A stretch of 64,000 nt of DNA from Candidatus Omnitrophota bacterium (GCA_020052955.1 JAGVOB010000004.1:12522-76521); one strand, 5' to 3'. Shown: positions 1,359 through 64,000, counted from the first letter of the stretch. Made by a program: numbers and translations. The notes: generated from the sequence alone by a model not told the origin.

Positions 1359-4300
1359 ATGGTAGACTGGCAGACAGGCGGTAAAAAAATGTGGATTAGA
1401 CTAATAGCCTTGGTTATAGCCGAGGTTTTTTTATTTACATCGATAGACCTGCCGTTTAGTAATTCTAACGCATATGCGTCTCCCCAGGAAAAACTTGTTC
1501 CCCCCATGCTCACAGGCAAATCCAAGGCCGACTCCCAAAGAGCAAGAGAAAATGAAATTATAGAAGGTCTGCTTCCATATCTTTTGAGAGACTTGAGGCA
1601 GCTTTATCCGGACGAATCTGCCCAGCAGATAATGTTAAGGGTACATAAACAATATAGCGATAGGATTACATGGTTTTCGGTTATGGGAATGACTGAAGAT
1701 AAACTGGGTCAGCCGGGGCATACCTATGCCTTTTCAATAGATAATAAAAAGGAGCCGGCACATTTTATAAGCGTTACCGTAACAGATGGTGCGACAAAAC
1801 TCCAGCCTTTGGATAAGATAAGTTTTGTAGATGATATAAGAAATAACAGAATCCGCCCCATCTCATTCTCTAATTTACCGATAACTGTTGCAGAGGTATT
1901 TGAGGTTCAAGGGGCCGGAGAAGGCGGGGGAAAAGAATTAAATATTGTTAAACTAGACAGTACAGACTTACTGTCTAAGGCAGCGGGGCTTTCGGGCTTG
2001 CTAATTGGTTACAGCGCAGGAGAGGGTAATATTGTATGGCGCATAGTCCTTGGGCTCGATGGTGTTTTCCTGCCAGGCCCGGGCACTATTATAAAACTTT
2101 CTCAGATAAATGACCTGGCTCAGATACTCCAAGCCCTAAAGGGCGGAACTGGACTTCCACAGGCAGATTTAGAGTTAACCCCGGAGAGATTAAAGTTAAT
2201 CCCTGCTATAACAGCTCCAGGCGCTCCTCAATTCCAATTAGTAAGAGCCGCAGCCACTAAAGAGGATGCCTCAATCACAGATAAACCCTTACGGGTATAT
2301 GTCTCAGAAGTTAATGTTGCAAAAGAGCCAGATATAAAGACACATCCGCCTACGGGGCCTCCGACAGGCTCCCTTGGCTTGTCTGCCATTATTCATCAAG
2401 CACCTATCACAGTAACCGTTTCCCAAATAACACCCCCTACCACAAGTAAAGTCCAAGTAGCTAAAGTAGAACAACCTGTAACTCCGCCCGCCGAAGAAGA
2501 AACCGCTCAGACACAAGAATTAGCCGAGACAATAGCAAGCCTTCAAAGACAGCTTGACCTTGCAAACCTCCTTCTTTTTACTCCATATCCTTCCAAAATA
2601 ATTTCTGCGCTTAGTGAAGCAATTAGGGTTGCAGAAGATGCGCTTAATAAACCAACACCTGATTTAGAGTCTCTAAGAGTGGCTGAGCTATACCTTAGTA
2701 GTGCTATAAATGAAGCCGTTATGACAGAGCCGATATCATACGTTTCTAGCTTACCGCAAGCCACAACACCACCCAGCGTAATTCCTCCGCCAACAGCAAC
2801 CTCCGCCTCTGTTACGCCCGAGCTGCTACAGGTAGCAGTAATTGAACCAACCAAAGGTGCGGTTGTAATGCCAAGGGTAGGACAATTGGCTGTTAAATTA
2901 GCGGCACTTGAGCCAGCAGGCGCTGCGGGAGAAGTTATAGTTACGGGAACAACGAGCAGTGTTTCTTCAGCCGCACCATCAACAGCAGCGGTTCAGCCTC
3001 TAAGAGCGGAGAAAGAATTAAGGGTTTCTGCTCCTGCCGTACCGTCTTCTATCAGTCCAGCCACTCAAATATTAGAGATTGTGATAAGGGCGCGGGCGTT
3101 ACTTACCAAAGCCAACAAAGAAAATGTTGTGAGCTTGTTAAAACAAACTGATATCCAAATATTAAAAGCCGCCCAGACAGAACTCGTAGATATAATAGGT
3201 ATCCAACCGACAGAAATTATGGCAACAGATGCTATAAGAATTGTTAAATTTACGGGGGTTCAACTTTATTACCAAAACGGAATGCCATATCTGACAGAGG
3301 TTATTGGAAAACTGCAGATTTATGATGCCCAATTTGAGAAGTTGTTTAGACAGTTAGCGGCCATAAGAGCGAGCGAAACAGTAGAGATAAGAGGCGCGAT
3401 AGAAAAAGTTCAATTGGCAAAATGGCAGTTTATAACAAAGGTTGTGCAGGAAGCGATTATTTTAAGAGAGCCAAGCGCGGCTATATCTACGGCACATATT
3501 TCCCCGGCAGTAACTTCAGCTGGCACTGCTGGGGCTAGTTTACCTTCAGTGCAAGGTCCAAAGGTAGTTGCTCTGGCAGAAAAACAATCTACAAGAGCTG
3601 TTGCAACTACAACAGGACAAGCAATGGCTACTACCGGCGTAACCAAACCTATAGTTGCTTCTGCTTCGCTTCCCACTGCGAGATCGACAACACTCGGACC
3701 GGCTGTGCGAACAGCTAAGGTAGCTAGTACATCTATCGCAATACCTGAAGTTGCGCCAACGATAGCACCTGCAGTCGTTCCGCAAGTTAAACCATCCAAA
3801 ACTACAGCCACCGCTACTGCTGCCGCAGTTCAGCCAACCACCAAAGGTATTTTTATACCCGAGTCCATTAAAAGGATTATAGTTACAGTTTCCCTGCTGG
3901 GAGTTTTGATTTTACTGCAAAATATACTTCCTTTACCCGGATTAGACAAGCTTGGAATGGGTATAGGCAGTATGTTTGGAATGAAGAGTGGGATATTTGG
4001 CCTTGGTCTTCAGCCTTATATCATCGCTTCTTCCTTGGTTCAAGTAGGTGCCGCCTTTATCCCTGCCCTTAAGAAATATGCGGAACTCGGCAAAAGCGGA
4101 CAGGCGAAACTGGCCGGGTACACTATGATACTTACGCCTATTATTGCGCTATTTTTAGGATTCTCTAATTTAGCTTCTATTGGTGGTATGTTTGCAATTG
4201 GTGGACTGACTATTTCAGGCCCGTTATTTTTAATATTAGCAGTTTTGGGTATGTCTCTTGGTTCGTTCTTGATAGCATTTGTCGGGGAAAGGATAACCAA

Positions 4301-7300
4301 GCATGGTTTGGGTCAGGGCACAACACTTATTATATTTACAAGTATATTAACCTCAATCCTTACCTCAGGGGCATCTGTTTTAAGCGGGGTTTCTGCGCTT
4401 CACATTTTCTCCATTTTAGCGCTAGGTGTAGTAGCAATTGTTTTACATGTCGTTACATTTAAGATACCACTTAAATTTGTAAGCAACATTAAAGAGGTAA
4501 AAGGGGAACTTCCTCTTAGAATGAACTACACAGGCACAAATGCCATTATGATAAGCTCTATGTTAGCGTCGCTTTTAGGCGCTGCTATGGGCGGTTGGCA
4601 GGGTATACTTATAAACAGCATAGCCATACTGGCTATGACAATTTTTACCACATACAGCACATTTACTCCTGATAAGTTGAGCAAAAACCTAAGTGCTCTC
4701 GGCGTCCAAGTGCCGGGAGTAGACGAGAGTAAATTAGGAAGTTATATATGGCGAAAAAGACTTTTATGGATAACGATACTGGGCGGCGTGGCTGTGGTGT
4801 TACTCGCTGGCTTACCAGGTCTTATATTAAACGGATTTAATCCCGCGCAGGCAGGTCCTGCAGGAATGGGTGCGATATTCGGAGGAAGTACGTTATTGTT
4901 GTTGGCGAATGCGCTGGTTGAGGTTTGGAATAATATAAGATATGCAGGGGCAAAGGGAGAAGCGCGAGGAGAGATTCAGCTGGCAGCAAAAGTCCAGAAG
5001 AAACCTATTATAAAAGTAGCAGGGTTTACCATTAAACAGATTTTGCCTTTTGGTATAACAGTTGCAAGTTTAGCAGGGATAGTTCTATTAAGTAATTATC
5101 TTGCCACAATAGGCGCTCTTATCGCGTTTATGTCAGGTATCTCTGTATTCGTTGTAATGGCGGCTATAATTAGTGCAATAGGTTATGGCGTGTATCTTAT
5201 AAGAAAGCATCAAATAGATTTTAATAAGTCTGTGGAGTTTTTAGGTGAGCTTACAGCGGGCCCAGCGTTTTTAATAGAAAACAGGGTTAAAGATTTTATG
5301 AATGAAGCGGAGACTGCCGCTAACCTGCCAGAAAATAGCAGATTTATTGAACAGTATGTAGAAGCACATAGAGGCGTTGCCGAAGAGCTTATCTTAAGAG
5401 AGCGCGCCAAGACAGAGATTATGAGACAATATATCGTTAAAAAGACGCACGAACAGTTATTATCTGATAAAACCGCAAGCTATGAAGAGGCTGATGCGCA
5501 TCTAGGGAAAATAAGGATAGATGCCATTGCCTTAGGCATTACCGCAATACAGTTATACAGGAGACGCGTTTCGGGTGAGACCAGGCTAGAGGCAGATAAG
5601 CTTACAGGCGCCAAAAGGATTATAAGGGAAAATCCCGTAGCCGATTTTACAATTCATAGAAATCAGATATTCGGCATATGGTTTTTGACTGAGATTAAAC
5701 ACTTTAGGGGCAGATTTATGACATATTTAGTAAGGATATTGAGTCCGTTCCTTCCTGAGGAGGCAATGGCAAAGATTAAGGGGTATGCCGTACAGGTTCC
5801 CACAGGTGAAGGTAAAAAGGAAATGGTTGGAATTGCCGCATATGTAATGTCAAGGGCGAACAAGGGAGTGCTTTTGGCAACGCATGCGCCGGACCTTGTA
5901 TATGAACAGGCAGTGGATATGGGCGATATATTTGCCTCGTGGCTTGATACGTCAGTTGGCGCAGTAGGCATACCAAACGAACAGGGAGAACAGACGTATT
6001 ATACCTTCAAATATGATTCAGATATGAATGAGGTAGAGGTAAGGCATGAAAAAGAGACGGCCAAATTTATACCTGCATATGCGTGCGGCGCTACATACGG
6101 CACGATGTCAGCATTTAACTTTCATAAACAGTTAGAAAGGATGGGTAGAGAAATTAGAAGAATTTATTCTGCCATACTAGATGAGATAGACGAGATTTTG
6201 CTTATGCAGGGCGTAAACCCTCACATCATATCTAAAGGCGATAAGGATCCGTTTGTAGAATTGGTTAATCAGCATATGGAAGACATTCTTAAGGTTATCT
6301 CCAGATTAGAAGCCGGAGAGCTTATATATGAACAAGGCCGGGTGCAGTTGGTTAATGCAGGACGCATAGAGGAGATTCTTAAGGATAAAGCGCACTCAAG
6401 AGAGGTAGCGGCAATATTTAACGACTATAGAATCGCAAGCTTTATAATAGGACGCCTGGTTAAGGAGTTAGCTGATAATCCGGATAATTACACCGTTGAC
6501 GAAGAAACAAGAAGAGCAACATTAACAGATAATGCAAAGGAATATATCAAAGAGTTTCTCGGAATTCCCGATGATAAGAATCTAAATGAATGTCCGGCGC
6601 TTGCGCATTTTGTGTGGGCTGCAATGAACGTTCAATTTAACTGCAGAAGGACTACGAAAGAATTAAGCGATTTATTTATGGTTATCTCCCAATTAAGAAA
6701 GGGAGATGTTAGATTTGACGCGGCTTCTGGAAAGGCGAGTTTTGCTGATCAGGGAATTATAGAGAAGATACTACGAGACGAGGAGCGCGTAATGGCTGTA
6801 TCCAGCGTACTTAGCGATCCGACACGCCACATAATAGGTTATTTAATAGGAGAGATGCGGAAAGATAAAACCAATTTTGTTCTTAAAGATGGAAAACCAG
6901 CGTTAAGCGATAAAGGAAGTAGATATATAAAAGAATTCCTTGGAATTCCCGAAGAAGCAAATCTTAAAGATTATCCCAGTCTTTCAAGCTTGATAGAAAA
7001 AGCATCTGATTTTAGCGCTAAGCCGAATGTTTCTATAGAATATGGTCTGGTTGAGATTAAGGATGATAAGAGTAATATAATAGGTTATGACGTAGTAGGT
7101 TATAACTCATCAACAGGCCAGTGGATGATAGGCCAGACCTATACCGACATACATCAGGCTATGGTTATTAAGGAGTTGTTTGCTGAGGTAAATAAGGGCG
7201 TAAGAGGCAAGATACGCTTTGTGGCAGAAAATGAGGCTATAAGCCAGCAGATGAACCAGTTATTCCTTAAGGATTGTTATCATGAGGCGGGAACATCGGC

Positions 7301-10300
7301 GACTTTAGAAAGAGAGGCTGTAAGGAGAGAATGGGAGACTTTAGGCCTTTTGGTCAGGAGTCTTTCTAAGGATAGGGCACCTGCCGTTGTAAATTTAGGG
7401 GTTGATGTATATTTGACTCGCGAAGAAAAGGCCCAGCCTATTACTAGGACAATAGCCGATAACGGTCAAAGAATTTCCGGAACCCTCATAGGTGTTTTTA
7501 CGGACCAGGGGGTTAATTGGGCAAGATATACTCTTGCGCGCCAGTTGCGCGAAGAGGGTTTTGAGGTTTATATAATTGACCAGCATACAACACCGGAAGA
7601 GATTAAGATGGCTAAGGGAAAGGCTAAGGATTTAAAACATAATCCAGACCCAAAATGTATTTTCATCATGAACCCAAGAGGAAACCGCGGGGTCAACCTG
7701 GCCGGTACTGTCCCGGATCTGCTATGTATAGCAGCAGAGATACCCGACACTAAAGACGCCCTTATACAGTTACTCGGCCGTATCGGAAGGCAGGGCGTCC
7801 AATGTTTTGTAAAGGAGATATATTCCCTTAGCGATAGTGATTTGTTCAAGGAGCATAACAGAGACCTGTATAATAAATTTGTTAAAAGCGGCATGACAGG
7901 AGAGATTACAGGCAGGAGAAGGGATAGCGTTCTAAAAGGTATAGAGAGTGCGCAGGAGATAATGGCATTAAGGCAGTCCGGCTCGCGTATAGACCTCGGC
8001 AGGTTCTATGGGTTGGTTCATGAGACATCCCAGAGAAGATTCGCCATGGAGGAGGGTATAGGAAGGCGTTCTACAGGGGATTTGAGGAAATATATATTAG
8101 GTTTAATTGAAGAGGATATGAAGCCCGAGGTTAAGCTTAATATTTTAATTCTCTTAAGCCTCCTCAGCGAGGAAACAAAAGGGGCTGTTGTAAGTATTAT
8201 AGATGAAGCGATTATGAACGAGTGGAGTAAATATCTTTCAGGAATCCAAGACCTGATGAAAAAGATTCAACTTGCCCAGTTTAAAGGAAAAGATCCCTTT
8301 GGAGAGTTTGCTCTTGGAGCTGCGAGATTAAGAGATAGTTTTAAAAGAGAGGCTGCCCGCAATATTGTAATGGCTTTAGCAAGCGTACATCCAAAAACCC
8401 TTTTAGAGATAAAACAGAGATTAGATGAAGAAAAGAGGATAGAGAGGGAAGCGGCTGCCTATTTTGGGGAAAGGCAGGTTGCATCTGAAGGAATAACTTT
8501 TGCGCTTGAGCCTGCTATAACAGAGGAAAGAGTATTTAGTGCCGCCGGCATCCTTAAGGATTTAACATCTCTAGCGCTTGATAAATCAAGGGCACCACAG
8601 ACAGGGATGCTCCATATTAAAGTGGGCGATGCAGAATTTATCCAGATAGGAGGGCACCTGCAGCATGGTGCAAATGCACCTGTTGAGGTAGTCTCATATG
8701 GACAAAACGGCGATACAACAAGGCCTGTTATAATAGTAAAGCTGAATCGTCCGGAAGATGTGGATAGAAAATTTTTAGAAGATTTTCTGATTCCCGATTT
8801 ACGTATGAAAATTTCTCCTAATGCAAGGGTTATATTTGTGTATTCCGGAAGCGAGAAGGAATTTAAGGCAAAGAGATATGAGATAGCGAGGGTTTATTCG
8901 CTGGTAAACTCTATCTCCAAAAAACATACAAAACAGGCAATCACCGGTTATATATGGGACAAAACAAATGAATCTCCAGCGCTTGAGCAGATAACGCCTT
9001 ATGTTATTCCTGTTTTCGATAAACTTGCCCACTGGCTGTCAAGGCTTAAGACACGAGCTCCAACGAGAGAACAGCTTAAATATAATTTTGTTCAGGTTTT
9101 AAAGTCTATTAATAGGGAAAACATAAAAGAATTAATTACAAATATCACGACTTTCAGATGGCAGGATATAAATTCTCAGAGTTTATTTAAAGTCTTTGCT
9201 CCCTCCTTAATGGTTTTAGGTGCAGTATTGCTCCCGTTAAAAGTATGGCTCTCGGGAGCTGGTATATCCGGGATAGAGGCCTTAATTACACCCAAACCTG
9301 TCTTGACTCAACAGGCACAATATGCAGGGCAGAGTGCAGGGTTAAGCCCTGATGAAAGAAATGAGATTGCACAGGTTCCCGTAGGGCAGCAGGTTGCTCA
9401 AGAATCCGCAGTACCTCAAGCGGTTGTCAGGGCAGAGCAAGCGCCTGCTGTAGCGCCTCAAGAAACAACCGCTGAACAGGCTAAGCCCAGCATATTCCAG
9501 CAAGCTTGGGCTGGCATAACAGGTCTATTCGCTTTTACAAAGCAACCCACTCAAAGAACTCAAGAAACTCAATATACTCAAATTGGTTTACCCAGCGCGC
9601 CTTATCAAGAGGTTACAGTCGGCTCACCACCTCCACCACCTCCGGAAAAACTAAATCCATTCCAGCAGTTCTGGTCTTTTGTGACAACCTCTTTTAGCAC
9701 TAATACTAATATTGCTTCTGCCTACACAGGCGTACCTCAGGTTGAAACATATACGCGTGATTTGTTACCATGGGTCATATTTTTTGGCATATTTGGTAGC
9801 ATTCTTGGTGTAAGAAAAAGAGATTTAATTGGAAATTTCCTGCGCAATGGATTAACCAATATTCCTGGCTTTATCAAGATAGCAGTCCCTGTCCTTATAG
9901 TTATGTTTTTATTATCAAATTCTACGCCAACACAATCAGTAATTGCACCGCCCCCAGCCAAAGAAACAGTTGTGCCTGTTATTATACCTACTGTAGAGCC
10001 CATAAAAAATATGGCGGAACTGCCCGCTAAGATTGATGAATTTTACACTTCCACTGAGATTTCAAATTTATTACTTCCGCCCGCACTAATATCTCTACAA
10101 AATGTAGGTAATTTCTTAAAAGTGCTCGGAGGTACTTCTCTAAAAACTCCAGAGGAAATAGTTGCCCTTAAGCAGGCGCAATATCAGAGAGCCACAGGAA
10201 AGACAATGAGTGAAAGTAACCGAAGCCTTCTACTTGAGTTTGAAAGTAAGAGGAACGACCCAGCTTCTTCGCCCGAGGAGGTATTTCAGCTATACAGTAG

Positions 10301-13300
10301 AATCGCAGGGAATCCAGAAATTGTATTTGACTATGGAAGCAGTATGGCTATTTGGGTCGAATTTAGAGAGAGTTTAAACTCGCCGGATAGTGCGAAGATA
10401 AAAGTTCTTTTAAATTCAATTTTATCCATTCCTCAGTTAAGGGATTTTATAAATAAGAAAGACCCAGCCCTTATCAAAGATTTAGAGCTTGCCCAGAGGG
10501 TTCTTTCGGGAGAGGTAAAACTTACCCCTGAGGTATGTGAGGTATTAGAGCAACTCGGCGCTAAGCTCACCGATTTAGGGAGAGATAAAGATAATCATGA
10601 AGAATTACTCAGAATTGATAATGAATTAAATCAGGTTATTCTGGATACTTCAAACCAACTGTTAAGCAATATATCTGAGGAAGAGTTGGAGAATTGGTTT
10701 AAGGAGAGAGGAATTACTATTTTGTGGGATGTAAAGGAAGAAGAAAAGCAATTCAGTAAACTTTATTTAGCTACATTAATATCACTTTTCTCCCTGTCAC
10801 AGATTCCGCCAGAGAGATACAGGGACTTGAATATAAGGATTTCTAATGATAGCTTTGCCTACAACTTTAAGACCGATACCATGGAATTTAACTTTCAAGA
10901 TACATTTGAAGGCTGGTATCCGATAAGAAGCGGTTTAATTGATTCAAGGACCACATTAGTTCATGAGATTTCTCATCGCTGGGACCTTAAATATCTGTCT
11001 GAAGACCTAAGAGCCCAGTTTTATAATATCAGCTGGGACTTTGAGCAGGTAAAGCAAAGACAAAGAGAAAGGGATGAAGCAACTGAGAAAGGGGAGAGGG
11101 TTATAATTTTGGACAGCACGAGAGAAGACGCGAATTTAGACAGGGATTTTCTGTGGGGGCACATTGTTCAAGGAGAACTTTCAAGTGGGATGGCAGTTGA
11201 AGACATAGCAAGAACAGTACAGGTCTTATATACAAATCCCTCTTTTGCTGTTAATAATGCTATTGATAACATAACTGAGTATGGAGACCCTGATTTAGCC
11301 CAGAAGATATTTTTCGCTTATGGGTTTTATGGGAGTGTCTCCAACAATGAAATATGGATAATACGCAGTGATGGCGCACCAGTTAATGAGGATGATGGCG
11401 TATATGTTTTTAAGCGAGATGGCAAGGTGTTTGAGGTAAAGATTGAAAATGGCGTAGCTGCAAAACCGCGCGAATTACCCGCTGATTTTAACCCAAATCC
11501 TTTCATACAGAAGTTATTTTCTCAAGCAACACCTCCAAAGCAATTTAGTCTATTGGATGTTATCACGGTCCGTGGCGCCTCTGCGTATACAGGCACAGGG
11601 CAGACAGGAATATTTACGCCTGATGTTCTTGGGTTAGTTGTATTCTTAGGTATATTTGGCGGTATTATTGGCATAAGAAAAAGAGATTTAATTTTTGATT
11701 TTCTACGTCGTGGCTTATCTAATATTCCACGTATCTCGCCACGTCTTGTTATAACTATGCTGGTTCTGTTGCTTGTAGCTACCTCTTGTGCACCGGCACC
11801 AACCGGGGGAAATCCTCGGTCAATAGCAACTTTGGCTCCCCCATATGAAGTAACCGAGACATTAATACCACCTGTTAAAGCTACACCACTTCCAACCGCT
11901 ACACCTTATGCAACAGTAGGGGATTATTTATCCAAAAAAGGTTTACCCGGCACTGTTTCTGAAGCTGAACTATCAAGATTTACGAGCCAGTTATTTGAAA
12001 AGCTTCTTGAGGATATGTATAAGGAAGGAACGCTTCCAAAAGTAGCAGGTTACGAAAAGGTATATACAGAGTTTATTCAGACATTGCGTAAACCCGGCGC
12101 TGTTAAGGTTTCTCCAGATACAAATGTTTTCTATTATATTAACCTTCACTCAGAATTACTTAGTAACGGTGTAATAGCGACAGATATACTTGTAAATAGA
12201 GGTATTATCAGTCCCGATTTTCCGCTTGATTTATTAAAGGATACCTTAAGACATGAATTTGTGCATTTTGTAAATAAAGACCTTACAAGAACCAAACTTG
12301 TGCTTAATGAAAGACTGAGAGAAGCTCTTATAAAGGCATACTCATTGCCGATACCTCAGGATAAAGATAAGGACCCGGACGATAGAGGAATGTATTTATA
12401 TAATAATTTTATTGAGGTACTCAAAAAGGACCAGAATCTGAGAGAAGATATAAAACGCCTGATAGCGGTATTTGTAGAAGACGAATACCTTGCATATGTT
12501 CAGGAGGCAAAATATACGAAAGTGTTGAGTAGTTTGCATCCAGAGTTGCGTATGCACGGTTTCTTTAATCCTGATGGCACAGTAAGGGATGAGATGGGTT
12601 TAAGGCTATGGATACTTGAGAGAACCATCCCGTCTATAAATCCGCACCTTCATCAGTTAGCAAATGAGATAGAAAGAATAGAAGGCAGGGCAGATTACTA
12701 TCCAGTTCCTGCTGGCGAGAAGCCTTACCGAAGATATAGCTTTAGAGCAGCCCATCCCCTAACAGGAAAAGAAGTAATTATTTCTTACCCTCTTATTATA
12801 CCAAAGGTTCTAATCAAGGAAGAAGTAGGCGGTGTTAAAACAGCACTTGGTCTTCCAGAGGAGATATTCGGAGAGGTTGCTCCATATTTTAGAAGAGAAC
12901 AATTAAGAGGAAACTATTTTGAATATCTTAAGAATAAGACTTATAAGGATTACAGAATTCTAGCTCCAAAACCAACCTCTATGTTACCACAGGATACCCT
13001 TATTAGCTTTGCCGGAGATTTAGTTACAGGCTTCCTTACGGCTAATGCCGTCCAGGCCGCAGGCCCAACACTGACCTCGACTAAAGCAGAAGTTGATATT
13101 CCAGGCCTCTTGCTTGTAGGCGGTGCCTCCTTGTTAATAGCCATATTTGCAGTTGCAGTAGCAAGGCCCTTGGGCGGTATGTTTAAGTTTGTATTCAATC
13201 CCCTGCCGTTATTGGTTATCTTAGCAGGAATCCTGCTTGCATATTTAGCGTCTACCGCTACTGTTTATCCTGCAACCCTTACCCCGGAGCAGGCAGATAA

Positions 13301-16300
13301 AGCCGCAACGGTAATTGAAGAAGTATTAAGAGCCCCCACGCCTCCGGGCGCCCCGCAGAAAGACCCGAATAATGAGAAATTCCTCAAATGGCTTGCAGAG
13401 CAGTTAAAGAACTGGGCAGCCCATCCGGAAAGGGGACTTCCGCCTATAGGGGGTGGCCTTATACAGAAACTGGCAAGCCAGAATGAGCAGGCAAGAAAAC
13501 TGCTTGAGGATATTGTGTCCGGAAAGGTAAGGATAATAGTTGATATTAGTTCTGGCGCATCAGTTGAGAAGGCGGGCTTACATCTTAGGTCTATGGCTGA
13601 ATATGCCTTAAGAAATGGTGGTATAGTTGATGGCCAGCGTGTCATATTCTTAGGGATTGAGCCAAAGACAGGCCTGTTTGACGCAGCAGTAAGGCAATTG
13701 GCTAATACTGATAATGTAATCTTAATTCAGAGCGGGCTTGGCAAGCTTCCGCAGGAATTTAAAGGAATAGTATTACCTGACCTTAAATTCTGGAGAGTAA
13801 TTGTTACTGCGCCTGAGCCTGATATGCTGGCAAAGGATTTTGGATTACTTACAGACGCAGCAAGATTAGCGCAGGACAAGGTAATAGTAGTTACCGAATT
13901 TATGCCCACGATGAAAGCGCCTGTGCCAGGAGGGCTTGAAAGCACTCCTTGGTTAGATGCCCTTAAACAGACTTTATCAGCCTGGCAGTATAATCCTGTC
14001 AGAGTAACATCGGATAAAGTGCCTGCATTTATAAATTCAGATACATTTAGATGGTTACAGTTAGGCAAGAGCCAGGTTGAGGGGCTTCGCTGGGGAGGAG
14101 ATTACTGGTATCATGAATTTATGAGAAATGGCGCACCTTCAATTATAATCCTGCCATTTATTCTTGAGAGCCTCAAGGAACAGCCGGTTGTTCCAGCCAC
14201 TCCATCTATTCCTACCCCTGTTTCAGGCATGCCTGGCATATTATCGGGCGTAGGTATGGCATTATCCTTTGCATTATTGGGCGGGGTAATGAGCGTTGTA
14301 TTTATAAAATCTCCGAGGCGTGCAAGAAAGTTTATTATAGCCTTAGCAGGTGCGTTTACGTTAGCTATGCTCTCAGGCGCTCTGATGCCTACCTATGCGG
14401 CAGAAAGACAATTGGGCTTAGGCGTAGTTACTTATAAAGAGAGCGGCCTTGGAGACTATGTTAACAGGTTAAATGCAGATATAGGGGTAAAGGCATTAGA
14501 CCAGGTTGAGATTTTACCCAATACCCTATTTTCTTTTGACTCTTACGTTCAAGGATACATATCTGAGGGCCATCCCCTTAAGGGCGATAAAGAGAAATTT
14601 GGCGCAGGGCTTTGCGATGTAGCAACAGCCCTCAGGCGTTCAATAGAAAACAGTTATGGGCCTCCTGTTATCGTAGAACTTGGAGAAGATGATGTTAGTT
14701 CAGTTGCCTCCATTGAATTCCCTCAAAGGCTGGCTAATGCGACTGTAATCGGTTTTAAACTACCGCGATACGCGGCGATAAATCAGGAACAGGCAAATGC
14801 ATTACTGAGCAGGGTATTAGAAACTTATCCAAATGTAAAGATTGCGTATATATATACCTCTCACGGTGAGGAATTTTATAACGGAGAGGGCGCTTCCGTA
14901 TTTTTCTATGAGAATTTAACAGCGAGTTCACCGCGCCAGGATATCTGGCTCTTAACACAAGAGCCATACCTGATTGATACTAATAGCCCGGATGATACCT
15001 TGCAGGAATTAAACATAAGTTTAATTTCTAAGGCAGCGACAACAACCGAAGACGCGCTTGCCGAGGAAGAGCAATTCACCTTATCAACCCTCCTATCTTA
15101 TCTGACCACCTCGGAGATTAGAGCCCAGGGAGCAGGCGATATAATAACAGCAATTTTAGCCATAATCATTATGGCTGTGTTAGGCAGGGGAAGAATTCCT
15201 AAATTTATTAACGCAATACCCGCACCTTCCGGCAGAGGACGGTTTAATTTACGCTTACCTTCATTGCTAAGGGTTATTGTTTTAGCAGGTTTTGCTCTGG
15301 CATTAGCCGCCTGCGCAACTGCGACGCCACAGCCAACCCCGACACCAATAAGCCAGGCGGATATACCGTCCTATACCGAACGCGTACTTTCCCAGATTGA
15401 TGAGGGAAAATATCCTTTACTGCGGGCAGAGCTTAAGAGAGTAGGCGTAATCAATAACCAGATAGAATATCCGGTAATGGTTGAATATGGCTTAAGCGCT
15501 GACGGCAAAACAGCCACTATTAAGAGCGTTACGATAAATCCCGAGCTTTTCCTTAATATGCCGGCAAATATAAGGGAAAGCTATCTTCTGCACGAGGAAG
15601 AACATTTAAGCCCCGCGAGCCTTGATTTGGCTCGGGCTATTCAAATATTGAATAAACATTTCTTCGGCGGCATAGATTTATCCAAATCAGAAAAGGAAAT
15701 AATGGAGGAATTAAACCGAAGAATCGTAAACGACCCCAAAGAAAGAGAATTATTCAAGCATTACGTTGCCCTGCGCGTCCAATATGAATATCTAGGCAAC
15801 AGGAAGCAGTTTGATTACATACTTAATAATCGGATAGATATAAATAATCTGATAAGCAAAGAACAAAACCCCGGCGTTAAAGCGGTCTTGGGCAATATAA
15901 ATGAATTTATGCAGGTAGCCCAAATTGACAAGCCGCAAGCTCAGATAAACGAGAGAATCTTTAAAATAGCGATACTCAGAAACCCAATATGGAATGACCC
16001 ACGGCTAATTTATGATTTTACCCTGGCTATTGAGCAGATAGAGCATCCCGAGCTTAAGTTAGTACAATCCGGCGGCAGATGGCAGATGAGCCCGGCTTAT
16101 ATAGGCACTGACGGACTTCCCACTCTGCCGATATGGGATTATCTCACCATACCTGATTATTATTCGCCCGATATCATAAATACTCTCCAGCAGTCTGCAG
16201 TTGGCGTGCCCCACCTTGCAAGGCCCGTTTCGCCCGCTCTGACACAGCCCCTGACTGCAGGCCAGACAGGCATATGGGCAGTTATTATAGGTATATTATT

Positions 16301-19300
16301 TAGTATCTTATTTATAAACAATCCTATTACAAGAAGATTCAAATTAACTTGGTTAAAGCGCATTGCTATTTTAGGAGGTCTTCTCATTCTATTGACCGCC
16401 TGCTCAAGGCCACAGGCTTTACCAACTGCAACACCTACTATGACACAAACCGCAACCTATACCCAGACGTCCACAGCCACGTATACTTCAACGCCGACAC
16501 AAACATTCACACCGACATCAACTTCTACACCGACAGAAACGCCGACATCTACGCCGACCGAGACGCCGACCCAAACGCCAACTTTGACGCCTACAGCAAC
16601 ACCTTTACCTCTCCAGAATTTTTTAGCTGGTGGAACTAACATTGGAAGCTGGTTGATATTTTTCATAGGATTTGGCGTATTATCATTTGGCGTTATAGTC
16701 CTATTACATAAAACAATTAACCTCAATAGCATTGGGCTTACATTAGGAGGTTTAATAGTTGTAGCGCTTGGAGCTGTTGGTTTGTATTACAGCTCTCAAG
16801 TACAAAATTTCGCTAAGCCGGCAACTGCTATCCAAAAGGCAATAGACTCTACAACGCTTTTTCTTGTCAGGGCAGGCGTCTTTTTAACAGGAATAGAAAT
16901 AATGTATTTATCAGCTCTGGTTATCTCTTTCATCTTAAGTAAGATTAAAATATTAGGACCATTCGCGAAGGTTTTCAGCTTGATAGGTAAGATATTGAAA
17001 ATACCGCTAAAAGAACTGTTAAAAAAACCGGTACTAGGACTAATAACTCTCGCGATAATTATTCTCCCATTTCTTATGCGCCTTATTCCTTTGCCAACCT
17101 CTTATGCTATTCAGCAAGGAGACTTTCAACTGATAGAAACATTACTTTATCTCAGGCATCCGATAACAGTAACTGACAAAGATGCACTTATACAAATAAT
17201 AGGCAAATTATATGATGAGGGCAACGGCATCACGCGATTTTATGTTGCAGACCCTTCAACAGGAGATTTAAAAAGCGTTGACGCGTACTATCTGCTGGCA
17301 TATCCCGAATCAATTAATTTTACTCTAACCCGTGAAAAGGACAAGGACGGCTATTACATAAAGATACAGGAAAATAAGATACAAGAAATTACTCCTACTC
17401 CTCAAGGTTCTATCCCGGGTGCACCACACCTTGCAAGACCCACTATGCCAGAGAGCCAGGTTGCTGTCTCGGGGGTGAATACCCTGTCCACATTTATTAT
17501 AGGTATATTATCCCTTATCTTATTCACAAACAATCCTATTACAAGAAGATTCAAATTAACTTGGTTAAAGCGCATTGCTATTTTAGGAGGCATTCTCATT
17601 CTGTTGACCGCCTGTGCAACTGTGACTCCAGTGCCTCAGGAGGCGACAATACAGCCCGGAAGCCTTGAAGAACTGCAAGTGAGAATAATAGAAAACAGGC
17701 TGATTAATGAACTCTTATTCAATTATGAAAACCAGGAGGCAATAATACAGGTATCCCGGGAATATGAAGTTGACCCGCGATTGTTAACCTCTGTTGTTAT
17801 GATGGAGATTGCAAGCCGCGATCCAAGTGAAGATTTATGGGATAATTTAAAAGATGAAGCCAGGGAAATATTAAACAGAGACCTTGAGGCTACCTCTTTC
17901 GGTATAGGACAGATACGAATTGACACAGCGCGCGATATGCTCGGCTACCTAAAGGCAGAGAACAAGCTCGGCGATTTGGAACTCGGCTACCTGATACAGG
18001 AATCATTTTCGGATGAGAATATAGAGAAAATCCTTGAAAACGACCATGACAATATCTACATAGCAGGAAGGTATGTAAGATGGATTATAGATACATTAGA
18101 AGGCGCGGGCATAGAGGCAGATATTTACACCGTAGGATTCGGCTATAATGGTATCGGTCGGATAACAAACTTTGATGAATTTGAGCCGGAAGTGCAGCAG
18201 GCGATAAGTGACTACAGGGCCGAACACACAGAAATATTCAAGCTGGTATATAATGCCACATACTACGAGTCATTGCTGAAGATTAACTATCTGCCTTCAT
18301 GGTCGTCATATCTTCTGGGAGCGCCTTCTAGCGCAGGAGAATTTATCAATGGTTTCTATGATGCCGATTCAGTCGGTTTTAAGAGCTACTGGGCGGTTTA
18401 TGACGGCGTATATACAAAACCGCATAACATCCTTCCTGAATTTAGCGGTTTATACAATGCCTCCGTATTCGGCGAGGTGCGCTCAGGAGCCATTAACCTT
18501 CCTGACGGCAGGGTTCTTCAGATGTACGAAAACAGCATCCTTGAGCTTACCTCCAATGGCATAGTCAAGCAGTATCCGTATGCGGCGTATATTTTGCAGG
18601 GGATGCGCTCGGGATTCGACCAGGATTTCATAAATCATCTATCGGCATCGCCCAATGTGCCGGGGAAATTCTCTAATTTTATAGCCTCAAATAATATCGG
18701 GGCACAGCTGGGCTCGCTTCTTACTGACGCATTTGACATGAAAAACTTCCCAATTGACGGCGGTGAAAAATCCGTCAGGATACAATTCTTTGAAGGAGGC
18801 GTGCTCATAGCGGAGAAAAATTTGCTTGGAATTCCCGGGGACGTAAGGCTTGCCACGGTAGATTCGGTAGTCAGATATCTTGAGTCAGTGCACTCCTACG
18901 CATATGATATGCCGCCTTACGATCCTCTCTTAAAACCGCAGCCGGCTCCAACATCAACCCCGCTTCCAACGCCTGAGCTTGGGTCGTATATTGTGCTTTA
19001 TTCGGTTGGCCAGACAATAGAGGTGACTACAAAGCAAGCCATCATTGATGTTATTATGGCCACTAACCAGCGGAGGATAGCTCATCAAGAAGAGTCCATT
19101 CAGTATTTCTATCCCGAGACCCAGTGGACAGGCGAACCCTATGCCCATTATCTCGGGGATGTAACCAGAGAGAGCCTTGTCGAGCTTCTTAAGGATTTCC
19201 CTGACTCGGGATTTATTATGCGCCTTACACTCCAGCAGGGTGACGTCGCCCCGTTTATCAGGATAACCGAGATTGAAACAACAGGTGCTGTTTCGCCCGC

Positions 19301-22300
19301 AAAACAATTCAGCCTGCTTGATTATTTATCAGTAGGCACTGCACAGGCAAGAACGCCTGGTGTCCTACCTACCCTAACATCTACATTTGACTGGCTGGGC
19401 TTGGGATTATTGGGATTATCGTTAGCCCTTGCATTCGGCATAGTAAGACTTGCCCACCTACGCGGTGGGACAGGGCGGCTTAGTCGAAATATTTTATTGT
19501 GGGCGGGAGTTGCTTTGGTAGTTAGTATTGCCTTAGCCAGCGGTATCTTTTGGTATTTTACACAGGATATGTCCTTTAAAGATTGGACAGCGGGCACGGC
19601 TTACTTTCACGAGCAACAAACTAAACTTATAGAGCCTATAATTAATACAGAAGATGTTCCGTTAAGAGACACTGGTTTCAATTTTCAAGAACTTGATTTG
19701 ATATGGCATCGGTCAATAGATAGTTTAATCTTAGATCCTAATAGACCCGAGGAGTCCAATCTTTCGATGCGGAAGCTTAATTTTATCCTGTATGAGAGGT
19801 TTTCCATAGGTTACTACCCAAGTTGGTGGCAAATCTATGAAATTCGCAGGAATTTTGTTGCGCAGAATTTTGATGAAATTATAGCTCTCATTGAAAAACT
19901 TAATCCATCCGATTATTCAGATTTTGCAACTCAGTGGCAAGCAGTACGCTTGAGAAATACCCTGATACGGCTTGTTTGCGATGGAATAGTAAGAGGATTT
20001 CCATCAATTGATTACAATAAATTGGACATAGTAAAACCAATTTTGCTTAATGATGAATTAATTGTTAAATTTGGTTGGAATTATGCGGGAAGCAATTTAA
20101 TGGATTTATTTTTAGATAAGAAAAATGACCTACCTCCTCTGATTCCCCCTGTCATTAATGAAGCACAAGCAGAGAGAACTCTTGATTTATTTACTAAATT
20201 ACTCGAGTCTTATAATAACACCGATTATAGCACGCTAAGCGAAAGTGATTCTAATCTGCTCTATTTCTATGAACGCAACGAGGTAACAGGTATTGCTATG
20301 CAGGAACCACTTAAATTTGAAGCATGGAGAGAATTAGCACAGTCTCTGAAGTACCTTTCTGATTATGCTCCTACTCAGCGTATCCGTGAACGCGCAAACA
20401 ACTTACTTTCTCGTATTCCGTTAGAAATTGTTAATGACCCTCGCATTGAAATAGCAAATAGGGAATATGGAGATGGGACGCACTATCTTACGCGTGAATC
20501 ATATCAAACTGCGGTAACTTACTATGAAAACCAGATGGGTTTGAAGGGAATACGTCAAATCCCGATTTGGGATGTTAACGCGGTAGCCTATGTTAGAAGA
20601 GAAGTAACACCTAAGATGTTAGAATATTTTGCTGAAAGCTCTCAAGCCCACGATGTGCCTGTAGATTTTCCCATAATTATGTGGTTACGAGATGATATGT
20701 TCCAAGCTAGAATGCCGCTATATACAATTGGAACTGGATTAGCTCACATTAAGACATTTTTTAATTATGATGGTGTTGGCGGTCGTATCGCAGATACTCT
20801 ACTTAGAGTACTTCCGGATTGGTTTTTGAATAAAGCTCTAGAGGATAGACCTGCAAAAGCTATTTTAGGGCTTATCTTTAATTCAGCTGGTTCGTTGACA
20901 ATGCAGGTGCGCGTAGATAGACCACAGAATACTGATGATTTAGGTATACGCTCAGATGGTTTATGGGAGCGTTTGGTTAAAAAGGGTTATGTAAGTGACC
21001 CCGCAACCCTTTCTAACAGAGAAGTTACATGGCTTTTGTTAACTGATCAGCGGCTTGCGATTGAAGCGGGAACAGCGATGTTATCAAGAAAATTCCAAGA
21101 CCCAAAAACTGGAGATTCCTTTAGACAAGATTATTATAATTATCAACGCTTGTTACCGGAAGGTTTTGACCGTCGAAGTCTTATAAGAGGGTGGTTTGCC
21201 CCAAATTTTTATAGTATATTTGGACCTAATCTGGGATTTGAACTTTATGGTGGTTATCTTACAAATGGCATTGCTATAGGAGAAGACTACTTTTTCGACC
21301 TTTACCTCGTCCTGTTAGAATCTGGTGTCTTGGATTCACTCTATGGCGAACCTGTCCCTGCGATTATAGTGGGAATCTCAAAGTTAGAAGAGTTAAAACA
21401 GGTGGGCAGATGGGCTAATGGTAGAGATGCAGGGAAGGACCCATATATCCAAGAGGCAGCACTGCGCACTCTTAGGGAAATAGCTCAAGATACAGAACAT
21501 CCAGAGATGGCTATTGAGGCTCAGAGGATACTCGGCATACTTGAACAAAAGAGCGCCCTCGCAGGCATAAAGACACAAGGCGTAAGCAATATCTGGCAGG
21601 GTTTGGCTATGGTATTGAGTTTTGGTTTAATTGGAGGGGTGTTTGGAGGAGTCTTTACGCCCATAAAAAGATTAAGAGACAGGTTGCAGGGAAGGGTTAA
21701 GTCAAGGACACTCGCCAATATATTAACAGGAGTTGTATTGGTTCTCGGGCTAGGCCTGATAATCGGATCCGGTTATGGAATAGCTTTATTGATTAACTAT
21801 CTTACACCATTTAATGTCCAGACACAATATCTCACAATTACCGATGCCTCTTATAAAACTACAGACCAATCGCGTATCGGCGAGGTGCTTGGCTTTTCTA
21901 ACGATATGCCTGTAATCTCGCCTATCCAAGGGCTAGACGTAAATGTTGACCTAAAAAGCAGTGTAATAGACGCCAACATATTAAACTTTACTATCAGCCC
22001 AAGAGAGGGCGAGACCTTAGAAGGTATAGAGGGCTTTGTAATTATAGTTATAAAGGATAACAGAGGCAACGAATGGCATAAGCCAGTAGTTATTCAACCC
22101 AATCAGAGCGAGTACTCAGTAGTTATACCCCCAGATAACAACATAGAATCCATAACATTTAGTTCTCATATATTGGATGATAAAAGGGTAAACATATCCA
22201 ATATAGCGCTTACCAATGGCATGAATGTGCCGGTAATCATGAGCAATGGAACCATTAAAGCAGTGCCCGCCCACATAGACTCAGCCAAGCATAACCTCAT

Positions 22301-25300
22301 AGTTAATAGCGATAATGAAATTATATTCACAGGCGATGATATCCTTACCCTGACATTCGATAAGCCAATTAAGGGAAATACGATGCAGTTTATAGCAAGT
22401 ACGAGGGAAGAAGAAAGCGCTATAAGCGTTGAATTGACATATGGTGAGTGGGGAGAAGTCAAATCATTCTTCATCTCCGGCGAGCCCACCATTTACACAC
22501 TTAATATTGATCCCACAAGAAAGCTTACGCAGGTAAGGATTTACGGTATGCAGGGCACAAGACTGAATTTTATACCCTCTGTGCCAACAGCTGTGCCTAC
22601 GCTACCCCCGCCCTCAGAAATTCCATCTTCCCCAACCGCCGCTATAATACCGTCCGGAACGCCAACTCCTGATTATATGTTTGCAAGGGATTATACGTGG
22701 GATGAGTTATTGAACGACCCAGAAAGGCTTGATGAGTTTGTCAATGAGGTTTTACGCTGGGAGTCAAGATTTCATCAGCCGGGCGTTGGCTACAATGCCC
22801 AAAGCGGTATTACCTATGATGGATATGCGATTAATTATACTACTGGAGAACTATTAGGCACGCCGCGCAATTGGACCGCAGCATCCAAGGAATCATTGCA
22901 GGTCACTATTTTAGCTTTAGCCATCGCCGGGAATGAAAGGGCGCAGTTCTTCCTCTCTCCCGATGATCCCTCCAAGGCAAGAGCTATTGCTATTGACATT
23001 CTTACAAGAAAGATAGCAAGTTATGAGAAATTTAACAAAGAATATCCCGGCTTCGGTGGATTCATACCGTGGGTCATAGTAAGCGATGAAGGCATAAAAC
23101 CAACAAGTGATTGGCAGGACCGCGTGCCAGGCCTTGATAATGGCCAACTTGCATGGTCATTAGTGCTTGCCGATTATGCTTTAGAGAAGCAGGGCTATAG
23201 GGAATTAGCGCAGCATTACCGCGACTACTGGCAGATGCTTGCCAAGAATTCTGTGCCGATGTTCTATGATGTCCAGACAGGAAAAGTGAGAGCCGAAGTA
23301 AAGATTGGTGATACAAAAGGCGAGGTTGTATCCTTAAACTACTCCAATAATGCCCCCGGATATTTCTTGGATGACCCCTACGAGGGTGAGCTCATGGTGA
23401 TGTTTACGAGCCTTTTTGGAGAGTGGGATGATCCTCTTGCAGTAGAGCGCATCTGGGAAGATAAACATATGGAAAGCGATGCGTTCCGCACAGCAGACGG
23501 CCAGACTATTACAGTAAAACAAGGTTACTGGTTCTCATCACATGAGGAATGGGCATGGTTTGTCCTGCCATATCGCGATGACCAGTTGGCATGGCAGATT
23601 TTCTACAATGGACAGGTAGCCAGAACCTGGTATTCCTCAGATAATTCGATACCAGGGCTTCTTGCTTCAGTCAATCCGCCCGTGAGCCCGAGCGGGGAAT
23701 CATTAGATTATCTGCAGTATCTAAGCGCGATTGGAATTCCTAAAATAGGAAGTCAACCAGTACAATACGGAGATGTTATCGCTCCCTATGCAAGTTTCCC
23801 TGTGATTTTGGCAGAGCAATCAGTGGGTAGCGTGTGGCTTCAGACTATGCTCTCGGGATACGGGATGCAGGGGCCCTATGGTTCTACAGAAGCTATTACT
23901 ACAGATGGCCAATATATTGCACCATTGCTTACATGGGATGGGAAAAATACCACGGTTATTGCATTTCTTAGCCAATCCACTGATTTTATGCGTGATGCGC
24001 TAAAAGAACTGGGTGTATATGATGAGTTTCTAAATCGTATTAATACCGAATACACCGAGACATTTGGCAGCAACCTATCAGTGTTAATTCCGCCTGTTAG
24101 TTTTGCAACCCCATCCGTAAGGCTTCCGACAGAGGGTATCCCAGGCTTCGTACCAGTCGCTCCAGGAACAGTTGTAGATGTGTTTAAAGGCTCTGCCTTT
24201 AATGGTGATGGGGAGCTGTTGAAACAGTACAAGTTGGAAAATGGAGTGCTTACCCTGCCCGCGGTAGATGGTTATATATGGAATAGCATAAACCAAACAG
24301 ATGTAACTACCAATCACTATTTGAACTTTACCGTCAATACAACCGGCGGCAGCGTATTTATAGAAATAAAAAACACCGATGACGAACTTATGACCAATGA
24401 TAAGATATTTGTGGAATTTCCCGATACAGGCGGTGAGTTCAAGACATACTCTATTGATGTGGGCCCGCTTTTAACAAACGATAATACTACGTCTGGTATC
24501 TTTGTCTTCTCTAGCCCAAGCGGTTTAATCCAGTTGCAGCAGCCACTACCCTTTACAGATGCAGCCACAGGCGAAATGTTGACATTTGACGGCAGGCAGT
24601 TCGGTTTAGGCCTAACTCCTCAAGCCCCACTTGACACCACAAGAGTTAATTTAATCCAACGGATTAATTTTATTCCAGATGATCCTGATCCGAATATAGG
24701 CCTTAAATATGACCATGAGGAGACACTAAAACTGTATAAATCAGGCGGATGGATATGGGCATATATTCCCGAGCTTTTAATCCCTGACCTTAAGATGCAA
24801 TCTGTCCTTGAGTTAACCGTGACGACAAATGCTCCTGCGACTGTCTGGTTAGAGCTTAAAAATGAAAATGACGAATGGCTGGCAATGACCGAAAAGCATT
24901 TTGATATTCCAAAAATCAGAGTTGATATTCCAAATACGAACGGCGTACCACAGACCATCCCCATTTATTTAGACAAACTCTTAATTAGTGGCATAGATGA
25001 TTATAGGGTTAAGATAATGGCATTCTCAGACCCAACCGCAGATATAGAGATTGCCGAGATGGTATTTACAGAATCGTCCGCTGTATCTGCTGCAGTAACG
25101 CCCGCGTCCGTAACAGAAGGTTTAATATCCTCTTCCAAATTCGGCGCATTTGGGTACTTAACTAGAATAATACCCGGTTCACTTCTTTCAACCTTCTTAG
25201 GCTTAGGTACCCTGGTTGTTGGCGTGGTGTTAGGCGGGATTGAGTTAAACAAGAAGAGCCTGAAATATTTACTTCTTACTATGGTCTTAGTATTGGTACT

Positions 25301-63081: not shown

Positions 63082-64000
63082 ATGATAGACTGGCAGACAG
63101 GTAATCACAAGTTCTGGTTAAAACTTATAACCTTGGTTATAGCCGAGGTGTTTTTATTTACCTCAATAGACCTTCCTTTATCAAAGCCCGATATCGCCCA
63201 CGCCTCTCCAACTGAAAAATTAGCGCCGCCGTTAGTCACAGGCGGTCAATCCGATAAAGCCCCTATTAGAAAAGCAAGGCGAGTTGCCGGAGAAGACACA
63301 TTACAAACTGCCGCACAAGACCTGCCGATAGTTGTTGAGGGAGATAATCTATTTAAAGCAATAGATAAAGCAGTTAAGCACATCTCTCAAGATGACATAG
63401 CGCAGAGTGGAAATAAAGACAATATCCCCGCCCTACTCTTAAATATCAATAACAGGTGGGTCCTTTTGTTGTTAAATACCTTAACAAGAGACAATATACC
63501 GCAAAACGTATTGGATATGTTGGGCTCTGAGATAGTAGAGCGCCTGATAGAAAGCGGTATGGAGCAGCCTGCAAGAGCAGACCTATCTACTGCGGATGCA
63601 CCAGGCATGCAAATAAGCCAGGCTGTTTTAGGCGATGGCCGCTTATCGTTGAAATTAGACGAAAGAGGAGCTATCTTATTATCCGGAGAAGATGATAACA
63701 GATTAACCCTTGTTGATTTACAGGTAGATATGGAGAAGGTGCCTGATTGGCTGAGGCCGCCTCAACAAGGCCCTCCCGTCGCTGTCTCCACGTCTGCCAT
63801 TTCAGTTCAGTTTAGATTTGTAAATCTTAATCTGTCCGCATCTGAAAGCACAGTAGAAACAGCAGAAGTAGCACCAGCTACACCCCTACAAGCAAGGCCA
63901 GCTAGCGCAGCGGAACTCAAGCGCGCCGAAGAAGCCCTCAAGCAAGCCCAAGCAGCAGCTATTCCAGTAACAGTTACAGCACACCCGGCAATACAAATTC
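63082..64000 (+). CDS. 5' end of a downstream paralogous giant-protein gene (partial, runs off the window end)
   Basis: ATG at 63082 is preceded by AAAGGG (63068-63073) with the same 8-nt spacing as the giant ORF. N-terminus MIDWQTGNHKFWLKLITLVIAEVFLFTSIDLPL is nearly identical to MVDWQTGGKKMWIRLIALVIAEVFLFTSIDLPF of the giant ORF. The frame stays open to nt 64000 with no stop (checked codon by codon). Confidence 0.7.
   Translation, partial: MIDWQTGNHKFWLKLITLVIAEVFLFTSIDLPLSKPDIAHASPTEKLAPPLVTGGQSDKAPIRKARRVAGEDTLQTAAQDLPIVVEGDNLFKAIDKAVKHISQDDIAQSGNKDNIPALLLNINNRWVLLLLNTLTRDNIPQNVLDMLGSEIVERLIESGMEQPARADLSTADAPGMQISQAVLGDGRLSLKLDERGAILLSGEDDNRLTLVDLQVDMEKVPDWLRPPQQGPPVAVSTSAISVQFRFVNLNLSASESTVETAEVAPATPLQARPASAAELKRAEEALKQAQAAAIPVTVTAHPAIQI

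Follow-up and report, generated by a model that had tools for sequence, protein, structure and literature searches.

A giant gene joining a SecY-like channel to a SecA-like motor

The 64,000-nucleotide stretch of Candidatus Omnitrophota bacterium DNA analysed here (GCA_020052955.1, JAGVOB010000004.1:12522-76521; hereafter the window) is almost wholly one uninterrupted open reading frame (ORF), which encodes, towards its N-terminus, a SecY-like channel domain followed in the same chain by a SecA-like motor ATPase (Table 1). The two parts and the segments between them form a SecY-SecA module of 1,531 amino acids, carried by a protein in which hydropathy reveals ~77 hydrophobic, transmembrane-like segments. 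The Pfam SecY family (PF00344) matches residues 879-1187 at E = 1.5e-37; the score of 130 bits exceeds the cut-off of 32.2, and the match extends over positions 2-303 of the 306 in the model. This domain lies in the same frame as the motor, as the original prediction of a SecY-like domain upstream in the same polypeptide had it. SecY chains in the PDB match this domain at about 1e-18, and an alignment with canonical SecY proteins places all ten transmembrane segments, whereas the SecY equivalog cut-off (TIGR00967) is missed about 3.4-fold (75.6 bits against 253.6). With the E. coli sequence as the reference, the pore-ring positions read L/I/T/I/M/L and are mostly hydrophobic. Counted by eye, Lys and Arg residues number 4-6 at the C-terminus and in the C2, C4 and C5 loop equivalents, against 0-2 in loops on the periplasmic side; this distribution fits the positive-inside rule and the canonical orientation of SecY, and thus places the motor in the cytoplasm.

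Two extra transmembrane helices follow the tenth helix of the SecY-like domain, so the chain is back in the cytoplasm before the motor begins, and they are in turn followed by a helical linker of ~110 residues that has no strongly hydrophobic segment. The extra helices could be stand-ins for SecE and SecG. Upstream of the channel, nucleotides 1392-3875 (residues 12-839) encode a signal-like helix and then ~800 residues rich in Pro, Thr, Ala and Val with no strong transmembrane segment. The charge counts put the start of the first SecY-like helix in the cytoplasm, which leaves one membrane crossing unaccounted for.

All seven motor motifs that had been predicted are present at the expected positions and in the expected order, in one frame and inside the one ORF. 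They are Walker A PTGEGKK (residues 1481-1487, nucleotides 5799-5819), motif Ia LLATHAPDL between Walker A and Walker B, Walker B DEIDE (residues 1608-1612, nucleotides 6180-6194) with its DE pair intact, VLKDGKP (residues 1841-1847), the motif III equivalent EAGTSAT (residues 1976-1982, nucleotides 7284-7304), motif V RGNRGVNLAGT (residues 2107-2117, nucleotides 7677-7709) and motif VI LLGRIGRQGVQ (residues 2138-2148, nucleotides 7770-7802) with GRxGRQG intact. Three details of that prediction need adjustment. The motor was correctly located, but it reaches beyond the proposed limits (nucleotides 5615-7850) and spans residues ~1385-2360, or nucleotides ~5511-8438. It shares a chain with the SecY-like domain, but it does not adjoin it, as it starts about 200 residues after the tenth helix, with the two extra helices and the linker in between. 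Finally, VLKDGKP does belong to an insertion resembling the preprotein cross-linking domain (PPXD), but it sits in the second copy of a duplicated half of that domain.

Table 1. Features of the window, in nucleotide positions counted from its first letter (aa, amino acids; NBD, nucleotide-binding domain; L001 and the P-numbered proteins are relatives described below)
Feature	Position	Strand	Evidence and remarks
Single giant ORF	1359..62585	+	20,408 aa; carries the whole SecY-SecA module; ORF list, translation, hydropathy
SecY-like channel domain, ten transmembrane helices, aa 840-1190	3876..4928	+	Pfam SecY, PDB SecY chains, alignment with canonical SecY
Two extra transmembrane helices after the tenth SecY helix, aa 1228-1271	5040..5171	+	Hydropathy; kept in P0002 and P0004
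Linker between membrane part and motor, aa 1272-1384	5172..5510	+	Sequence; 90% identical in L001
SecA-like NBD1, first part, aa 1385-1655	5511..6323	+	Pfam SecA_DEAD 39.9 bits; motif table; 94.6% identical in L001
PPXD-like insertion, aa 1656-1950	6324..7208	+	SecA_PP_bind, hhalign; ends with a conserved HQA motif
NBD1, second part, with EAGTSAT	7209..7373	+	Aligns to SecA GMTGTA
SecA-like NBD2, aa 2006-2180	7374..7898	+	Family profile, hhalign; predicted local distance difference test (pLDDT) 80-90; 96.9% identical in L001
Helical scaffold region, aa 2181-2360	7899..8438	+	AlphaFold secondary structure; Pfam SecA_SW; PRK12901; local alignment
Small conserved domain after the motor, aa ~2425-2520	8631..8918	+	Common to P0001 (E = 7e-11) and P0002 (E = 8e-5)
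N-terminal hydrophobic segment, aa 12-33	1392..1457	+	Hydropathy; kept in the paralogue at nucleotide 63082
Lipobox-like Cys codons	11787-11789, 15312-15314, 16401-16403, 17613-17615, 25308-25310		Cys3477, Cys4652, Cys5015, Cys5419, Cys7984
Other recognisable domains (DUF3131, HEAT repeats, uridine kinase/PRK, cytidylate kinase, HD)	43533-43826, 52500-52718, 56778-57341, 57549-58046, 60627-60848		

The motor belongs with SecA rather than with helicases

The profile searches called for by the original prediction, which had named a SecA-type motor, return SecA_DEAD, SecA_PP_bind and SecA_SW in the correct N-to-C order and no helicase family in a Pfam scan of residues 1401-2380. SecA_DEAD (PF07517) is well above its cut-off of 24.6 bits (E = 3.9e-10, 39.9 bits), and the other two families fall below theirs. 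SecA_PP_bind (PF01043) reaches E = 6e-4 and 20.8 bits, just below its cut-off of 23.5, and it exceeds that cut-off in the relatives P0003 (28.8 bits) and P0005 (31.2 bits); in the hhalign comparison, moreover, the insertion, HQA motif included, falls on the PPXD of SecA. The N-terminal half of the domain is tandemly duplicated (residues 1660-1755, nucleotides 6336-6623, and residues 1791-1882, nucleotides 6729-7004), the two copies of ~96 residues being 32% identical (E = 4e-17), and the second copy is missing from all six distant relatives in the family alignment. SecA_SW (PF07516) matches at positions 105-199 with E = 8e-4 and 19.9 bits (cut-off 26.7), and NCBIfam PRK12901 matches the same scaffold region at E = 1.5e-4. 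AlphaFold gives this region a 52-residue helix (residues 2185-2236), two short helices that amount to a reduced wing, and a helix-loop-helix (residues 2274-2341), and the long scaffold helix is aligned in the PDB-profile and hhalign comparisons as well. At the tip of the hairpin, AQFKGKD (nucleotides 8274-8297) aligns to LRGYGQRDP at the tip of the SecA two-helix finger, with Phe2308 at the position of the fingertip Tyr, which weakly suggests that such a finger is present.

Direct searches of Pfam, NCBIfam and PDB sequences return nearly nothing other than SecA or SecA2, the remaining Pfam and NCBIfam matches having E = 0.006-0.08 only, and phmmer against PDB sequences finds SecA chains at E <= 0.1 together with one phosphomannomutase at E = 0.83. 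A family profile was built from the alignment of the window module with six relatives (A1). Against 5.8e9 sequences it finds canonical SecA at E = 1e-40 to 6e-20, and against the PDB it finds SecA crystal structures at E = 2.3e-44, in an alignment that runs from NBD1 through PPXD and NBD2 into the first part of the scaffold (NBD2 being aligned to residues 503-681 of T. maritima SecA). In hhalign, a canonical SecA profile matches the family profile with 100% probability (E = 1.6e-49), the 553 aligned columns beginning at Walker A and reaching the scaffold helix. PF21090 matches the relative P0005 at 30.9 bits, above its 27-bit cut-off, and gives no match for the window sequence alone; the SEC-C zinc tail (PF02810) is not found by the Pfam scan.

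A first AlphaFold model, made from the seven family sequences alone, is poor (pLDDT 56.6, predicted template modelling score (pTM) 0.35) and its domain packing is unusable. Its 34 best Foldseek matches in the PDB are nonetheless all SecA or SecA2 (E = 3e-15), with helicases only from 7.6e-5. A second model, for which canonical SecA sequences were included in the alignment and which is thereby biased toward the SecA fold, improves to pLDDT 72.6 and pTM 0.58, and it likewise finds 34 SecA/SecA2 chains first, down to E = 2.8e-20, followed by UvrB at 3.9e-7. Its top TM-scores (0.59, target-normalised) are to SecY-bound SecA (6itc_A, 5eul_A), level with free E. coli SecA. The first, unbiased model ranks SecA first just as the biased one does. 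By the sequence and structure comparisons together, neither of the findings that would have refuted the original prediction is seen: the motor is neither closest to generic superfamily 2 (SF2) helicases nor devoid of the PPXD and scaffold regions.

Assignment to a generic SF2 helicase is rejected, as the only non-SecA match of the family profile in the PDB, RecG, stands at 1.2e-4 against 2e-44 for SecA, and UvrB stands at 3.9e-7 against 2.8e-20 in the structural search. Membership of SecA2/SecY2 is rejected as well, no SecA2 or SecY2 model scoring better than those for SecA or SecY: SecA2 models reach 20-52 bits where 725-1100 are required, without surpassing the SecA model, and the NCBIfam SecY2 models give no match. 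The SecA equivalog cut-offs are themselves missed by a wide margin (TIGR00963, 60.5 bits against 814; PRK12904, 44.3 against 800). By these sequence comparisons, the SecA-like and SecY-like parts are remote paralogues and not orthologues of SecA, SecA2 or SecY.

The fusion is conserved among relatives

An exhaustive phmmer search of residues 960-2159 against 1.84 billion cluster representatives yields 76 matches, six of them with E <= 1e-10. The best of them is P0001, which is 36% identical to the module and was recovered from an Omnitrophota metagenome-assembled genome (MAG); the relatives as a whole derive from Omnitrophota (P0001 and P0005 included), candidate division FCPU426 and unclassified MAGs. 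A word-indexed search with the window module gave no match, the family being too remote or fragmented for that index, and a metagenome scan with a single-protein query found no relative. One close relative only was found in a genome scan: L001 (CAYZNX010000060.1, labelled 'uncultured Planctomycetia'), a MAG contig that is open over all of its 7,158 nucleotides and 86% identical to the window over 2,081 amino acids (residues 795-2870). Identity between the two is highest in NBD1 (94.6%) and NBD2 (96.9%), stands at 90.6% in the SecY-like domain, and falls to 76-78% in the flanks, a pattern that shows purifying selection on the ATPase core.

In the distant relatives, the same order recurs. P0002 (3,157 residues), P0003 (1,527 residues) and P0004 (2,037 residues) carry Pfam SecY (E = 1e-36 to 1e-47) and, 100-300 residues later, SecA_DEAD; SecY precedes SecA wherever the sequence of a distant relative extends far enough upstream to show it. 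In a crude neighbour-joining tree with 32 canonical SecY proteins, the fused SecY domains form one clade. The locus L002 (ERZ25039480:contig_62891, 7777-12586) has the same order, and its gene calls are split, the SecY part being called as genes of 279 and 305 residues and the SecA-like part as a separate gene of 861 residues. This split may reflect either assembly frameshifts or truly separate genes, and it bears on how the fusion arose.

The L002 calls, together with the position of the relatives on short contigs or at contig edges, could be taken to mean that the fusion is an artefact, either a chimeric assembly or separate genes misread as one ORF. We reject this explanation as extremely improbable, since 61 kb that are stop-free in one frame are impossible by chance, the independent contig L001 is open across the same junction, and in P0002 and P0004 a single called gene, which occupies its whole contig or continues past the edge, encodes channel and motor together; the split in L002 could itself be due to frameshift errors. 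Homology to SecY and SecA, the domain order and the conservation of the fusion are well established by sequence comparison, and the covalent arrangement of channel and motor that was originally proposed holds for the window and for its relatives.

Other features of the giant protein and flanking genes

The small domain that follows the motor (Table 1) has no match in Pfam, is succeeded by a transmembrane helix (residues 2609-2636), and may be a further component of the SecY-SecA module. The protein contains only 27 Cys in its 20,408 residues, seven of which lie within the SecA-like motor. Another five stand in lipobox-like contexts (in order, LVATS|C, LALAA|C, LLLTA|C, ILLTA|C and LVLTA|C), each preceded by a Lys/Arg-rich loop and a hydrophobic helix and followed by a linker rich in Pro, Thr and Ser. 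Each context resembles a lipoprotein-type signal peptide placed within the chain, so that processing of the giant protein may yield lipoproteins. The transmembrane-like segments and the lipobox contexts together indicate that the protein alternates between cytoplasmic and exported parts and has internal signal-like elements.

Few other domains are recognisable in the giant protein (Table 1), and the nucleotide kinases and HD domain among them are enzymes of cytoplasmic type near its C-terminus. Its translation also shows a large internal repeat at nucleotides ~26860-32650 (residues ~8500-10430), made of near-identical segments of ~960 residues each. The segments begin …QLQQQPPYL(A/V)GFLATPGMLVFL…RNKRR…, with a third start near residue 10395, and two of them hold an identical transmembrane helix, VILTLSILSPILLLAGAYA, at residues 8530 and 9493.

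The N-terminal hydrophobic segment, with KK..R followed by AYA|S, has the look of a signal peptide or a signal anchor. Downstream, a new ORF at nucleotides 63082-64000 begins with the same N-terminus as the giant protein (MIDWQTGNHKFWLKLITLVIAEVFLFTSIDLP) and runs off the window; as this paralogue shares the N-terminus, it supports the start codon of the giant ORF at nucleotide 1359. Upstream, nucleotides 1-927 are in a frame open from the first position, which ends with a C-terminus (…LLTELTQK*) like that of the giant protein (…LLIEFKQL*). The giant gene is thus flanked on both sides by tandem paralogues, and its two intergenic regions are partly similar.

Possible functions of the fused module

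We infer, as the likeliest function but in what is an evenly balanced judgement, that residues ~840-2360 act as a divergent single-chain Sec translocon in cis on the chain downstream. The SecY-SecA module would be made first and inserted by the housekeeping machinery, after which it would work as a private 1:1 channel and motor, threading the exported segments of the ~18,000 residues that follow and releasing transmembrane hairpins sideways into the membrane. About 65 of the ~77 transmembrane-like segments would belong to this substrate, along with no fewer than five internal signal peptides of lipoprotein type, and the general SecYEG would thereby not be tied up by one enormous substrate. In favour of such a role, an engineered SecY-SecA fusion is active in vitro, and self-export has been proposed for the SecA-like domains of other giant proteins (both discussed below). 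A more elaborate form of this proposal, possible but rather doubtful, is a self-exporting polyprotein in which a SecY-type channel, two surrogate helices and a SecA-type motor stand at a fixed 1:1 ratio, and in which the periplasmic domains would be started by the internal lipoprotein-type signal peptides and perhaps cut at the lipobox Cys by signal peptidase II.

A number of observations weigh against a working translocon in cis. In the motor, the Walker A of both the window and L001 reads GEGKK, in which the Walker A Lys is kept and a further Lys replaces the Mg-coordinating Ser/Thr, so that ATPase activity is uncertain; moreover, the finger tip and wing are not conserved at the family level, and the hhalign alignment ends at template column 698 of 898. 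In the channel, alignment to the E. coli sequence and numbering puts Asp1122 at the position of the conserved C5-loop residue Arg357 and makes the plug region about 16 residues shorter. Arg357 of E. coli SecY is important for coupling to SecA and the ribosome. No SecE or SecG equivalent is recognised by Pfam in the two extra helices, and the signal-like N-terminal helix with the 800-residue Pro/Thr-rich stretch would, at face value, invert the channel. The related 3,298-residue protein P0112 carries a SecA-like module without SecY, so the fused SecY-SecA modules are a subset of a wider group. This link to SecY-less modules is made through the similarity of P0004 to P0112 alone, as phmmer with the window module against P0112 returns no matches. 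Lastly, nothing in these data distinguishes action in cis from action in trans.

A dedicated accessory translocase in trans, serving the tandem paralogous giants or other large surface proteins while the rest of the chain only houses it, has to be considered, and we hold it to be fairly unlikely. The paralogous giant genes on both sides could supply such substrates. In the lineage of P0004, two of 41 recovered large proteins have a SecA-like module (P0004, and P0112 without SecY). Accessory Sec (aSec) systems, comprising SecA2 and SecY2, are dedicated to very large substrates and would by analogy offer a precedent. On the other hand, the module is covalently bound to one polytopic chain of 18,000 residues, so that each molecule has a single translocon; signals specific to SecA2 or SecY2 are absent from the NCBIfam comparison, and the window shows no partner genes. 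As a separate observation on the P0004 lineage, residues 1-415 of P0004 correspond to an N-terminal domain of ~400 residues common to about 40 other large proteins (P0113-P0151; 1,300-3,500 residues), in which it is fused to differing housekeeping-type domains (aldolase, enolase/TIM/PGK, SIS, PEP-utilising, HD, HEAT, uridine kinase).

An unlikely alternative is that the module is a degenerate relic, its SecY-like part serving only as a membrane anchor and its SecA-like part acting as a scaffold without ATPase activity or as a chaperone that binds polypeptides. The altered Walker A, the loss of the Arg357 equivalent and the shortened plug all agree with decay, as do the replacement of the motif V Asp by Asn, the variability of the motif V Arg among relatives, and scores that lie far below the SecA and SecY equivalog cut-offs. 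Against this, L001 and the window agree most closely in the NBDs (95-97%), the Walker A Lys, the DE pair of Walker B and the GRxxRQG of motif VI are all preserved, the relatives that cover Walker A have the canonical GK[ST] and those that cover motif VI keep the GRxxRQ core, and the pore-ring positions of the channel are mostly hydrophobic.

If the single-chain module is active, it would be a natural counterpart of a hand-built fusion in which one SecY is covalently tied to one SecA, and it would bear on the dispute over the copy number of SecY and SecA in the working translocase. It would also represent a channel and motor in one compact unit, possibly independent of SecE and SecG, and it would suggest how cells can make membrane proteins of 20,000-60,000 residues without jamming general secretion.

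Comparison with known systems

Relative to the canonical SecYEG-SecA translocase, the module has the ten-helix SecY fold, the order NBD1-PPXD-NBD1-NBD2-helical scaffold, motifs I, Ia, II, III, V and VI, and a motor on the cytoplasmic face. It differs in that channel and motor are one polypeptide, with neither SecE nor SecG recognised. The SecY-like domain has lost the Arg357 equivalent found in canonical SecY, and the motor, unlike canonical SecA, lacks an amphipathic helix at its N-terminus and a Zn/SecB-binding tail at its C-terminus, carries GKK in Walker A, has half of the PPXD duplicated and the wing reduced, and scores at least 10-fold below the equivalog cut-offs. The accessory Sec system of Gram-positive bacteria offers an analogy, as a second, dedicated channel-motor pair for very large surface proteins, and SecA2 structures are among the top fold matches of the module. 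In contrast to the window module, SecA2 and SecY2 are separate proteins that operate with Asp accessory factors, and the lineage of the window is that of MAGs resembling the Planctomycetes-Verrucomicrobia-Chlamydiae (PVC) group and Omnitrophota.

We found no report in the literature of a natural SecY-SecA fusion. An engineered one, a single polypeptide, translocates protein in vitro as a single unit (Sugano et al. 2017, PMC5562318). That construct is artificial, of canonical E. coli type and in need of SecE and SecG, whereas the fusion in the window is natural and part of a giant protein. The junction of the engineered fusion reportedly runs from the SecY C-terminus to the SecA N-terminus; in the window, two extra transmembrane helices and a linker of ~110 residues intervene.

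The nearest published parallel is found in giant proteins of Omnitrophota and actinobacteria with divergent SecA_DEAD and PP_bind domains, for which self-export by the SecA-like domains has been proposed (West-Roberts et al. 2023, bioRxiv 10.1101/2023.11.21.568195). In common with proteins of the 'Archaeovorin' and 'Dockerin' types described there, the window protein holds divergent SecA_DEAD and PP_bind domains, remote from housekeeping SecA, within a giant chain of many transmembrane segments; it likewise exceeds 10,000 residues and has relatives in Omnitrophota. The published modules are described as lacking the scaffold and wing and as following transmembrane anchors near the C-terminus, and SecYEG is mentioned there only in the form of separate, non-syntenic genes (West-Roberts et al. 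2023, 10.1101/2023.11.21.568195). The window module, in contrast, is N-proximal, keeps the scaffold helix and a finger-like hairpin, and stands behind a complete SecY domain. A 2026 preprint on Omnitrophota (bioRxiv 10.64898/2026.06.07.730766) includes an architecture group for PF07517 and nowhere refers to SecY. The window therefore refines the published picture of giant Omnitrophota-type proteins, in that a whole SecY channel can make up the 'adjacent transmembrane regions' beside their SecA-like domains, and in that the scaffold region of such modules is not always missing. A SecA-like motor within a giant protein is already known; what is new in this module is that it is covalently joined to a SecY channel, keeps the scaffold and lies close to the N-terminus.

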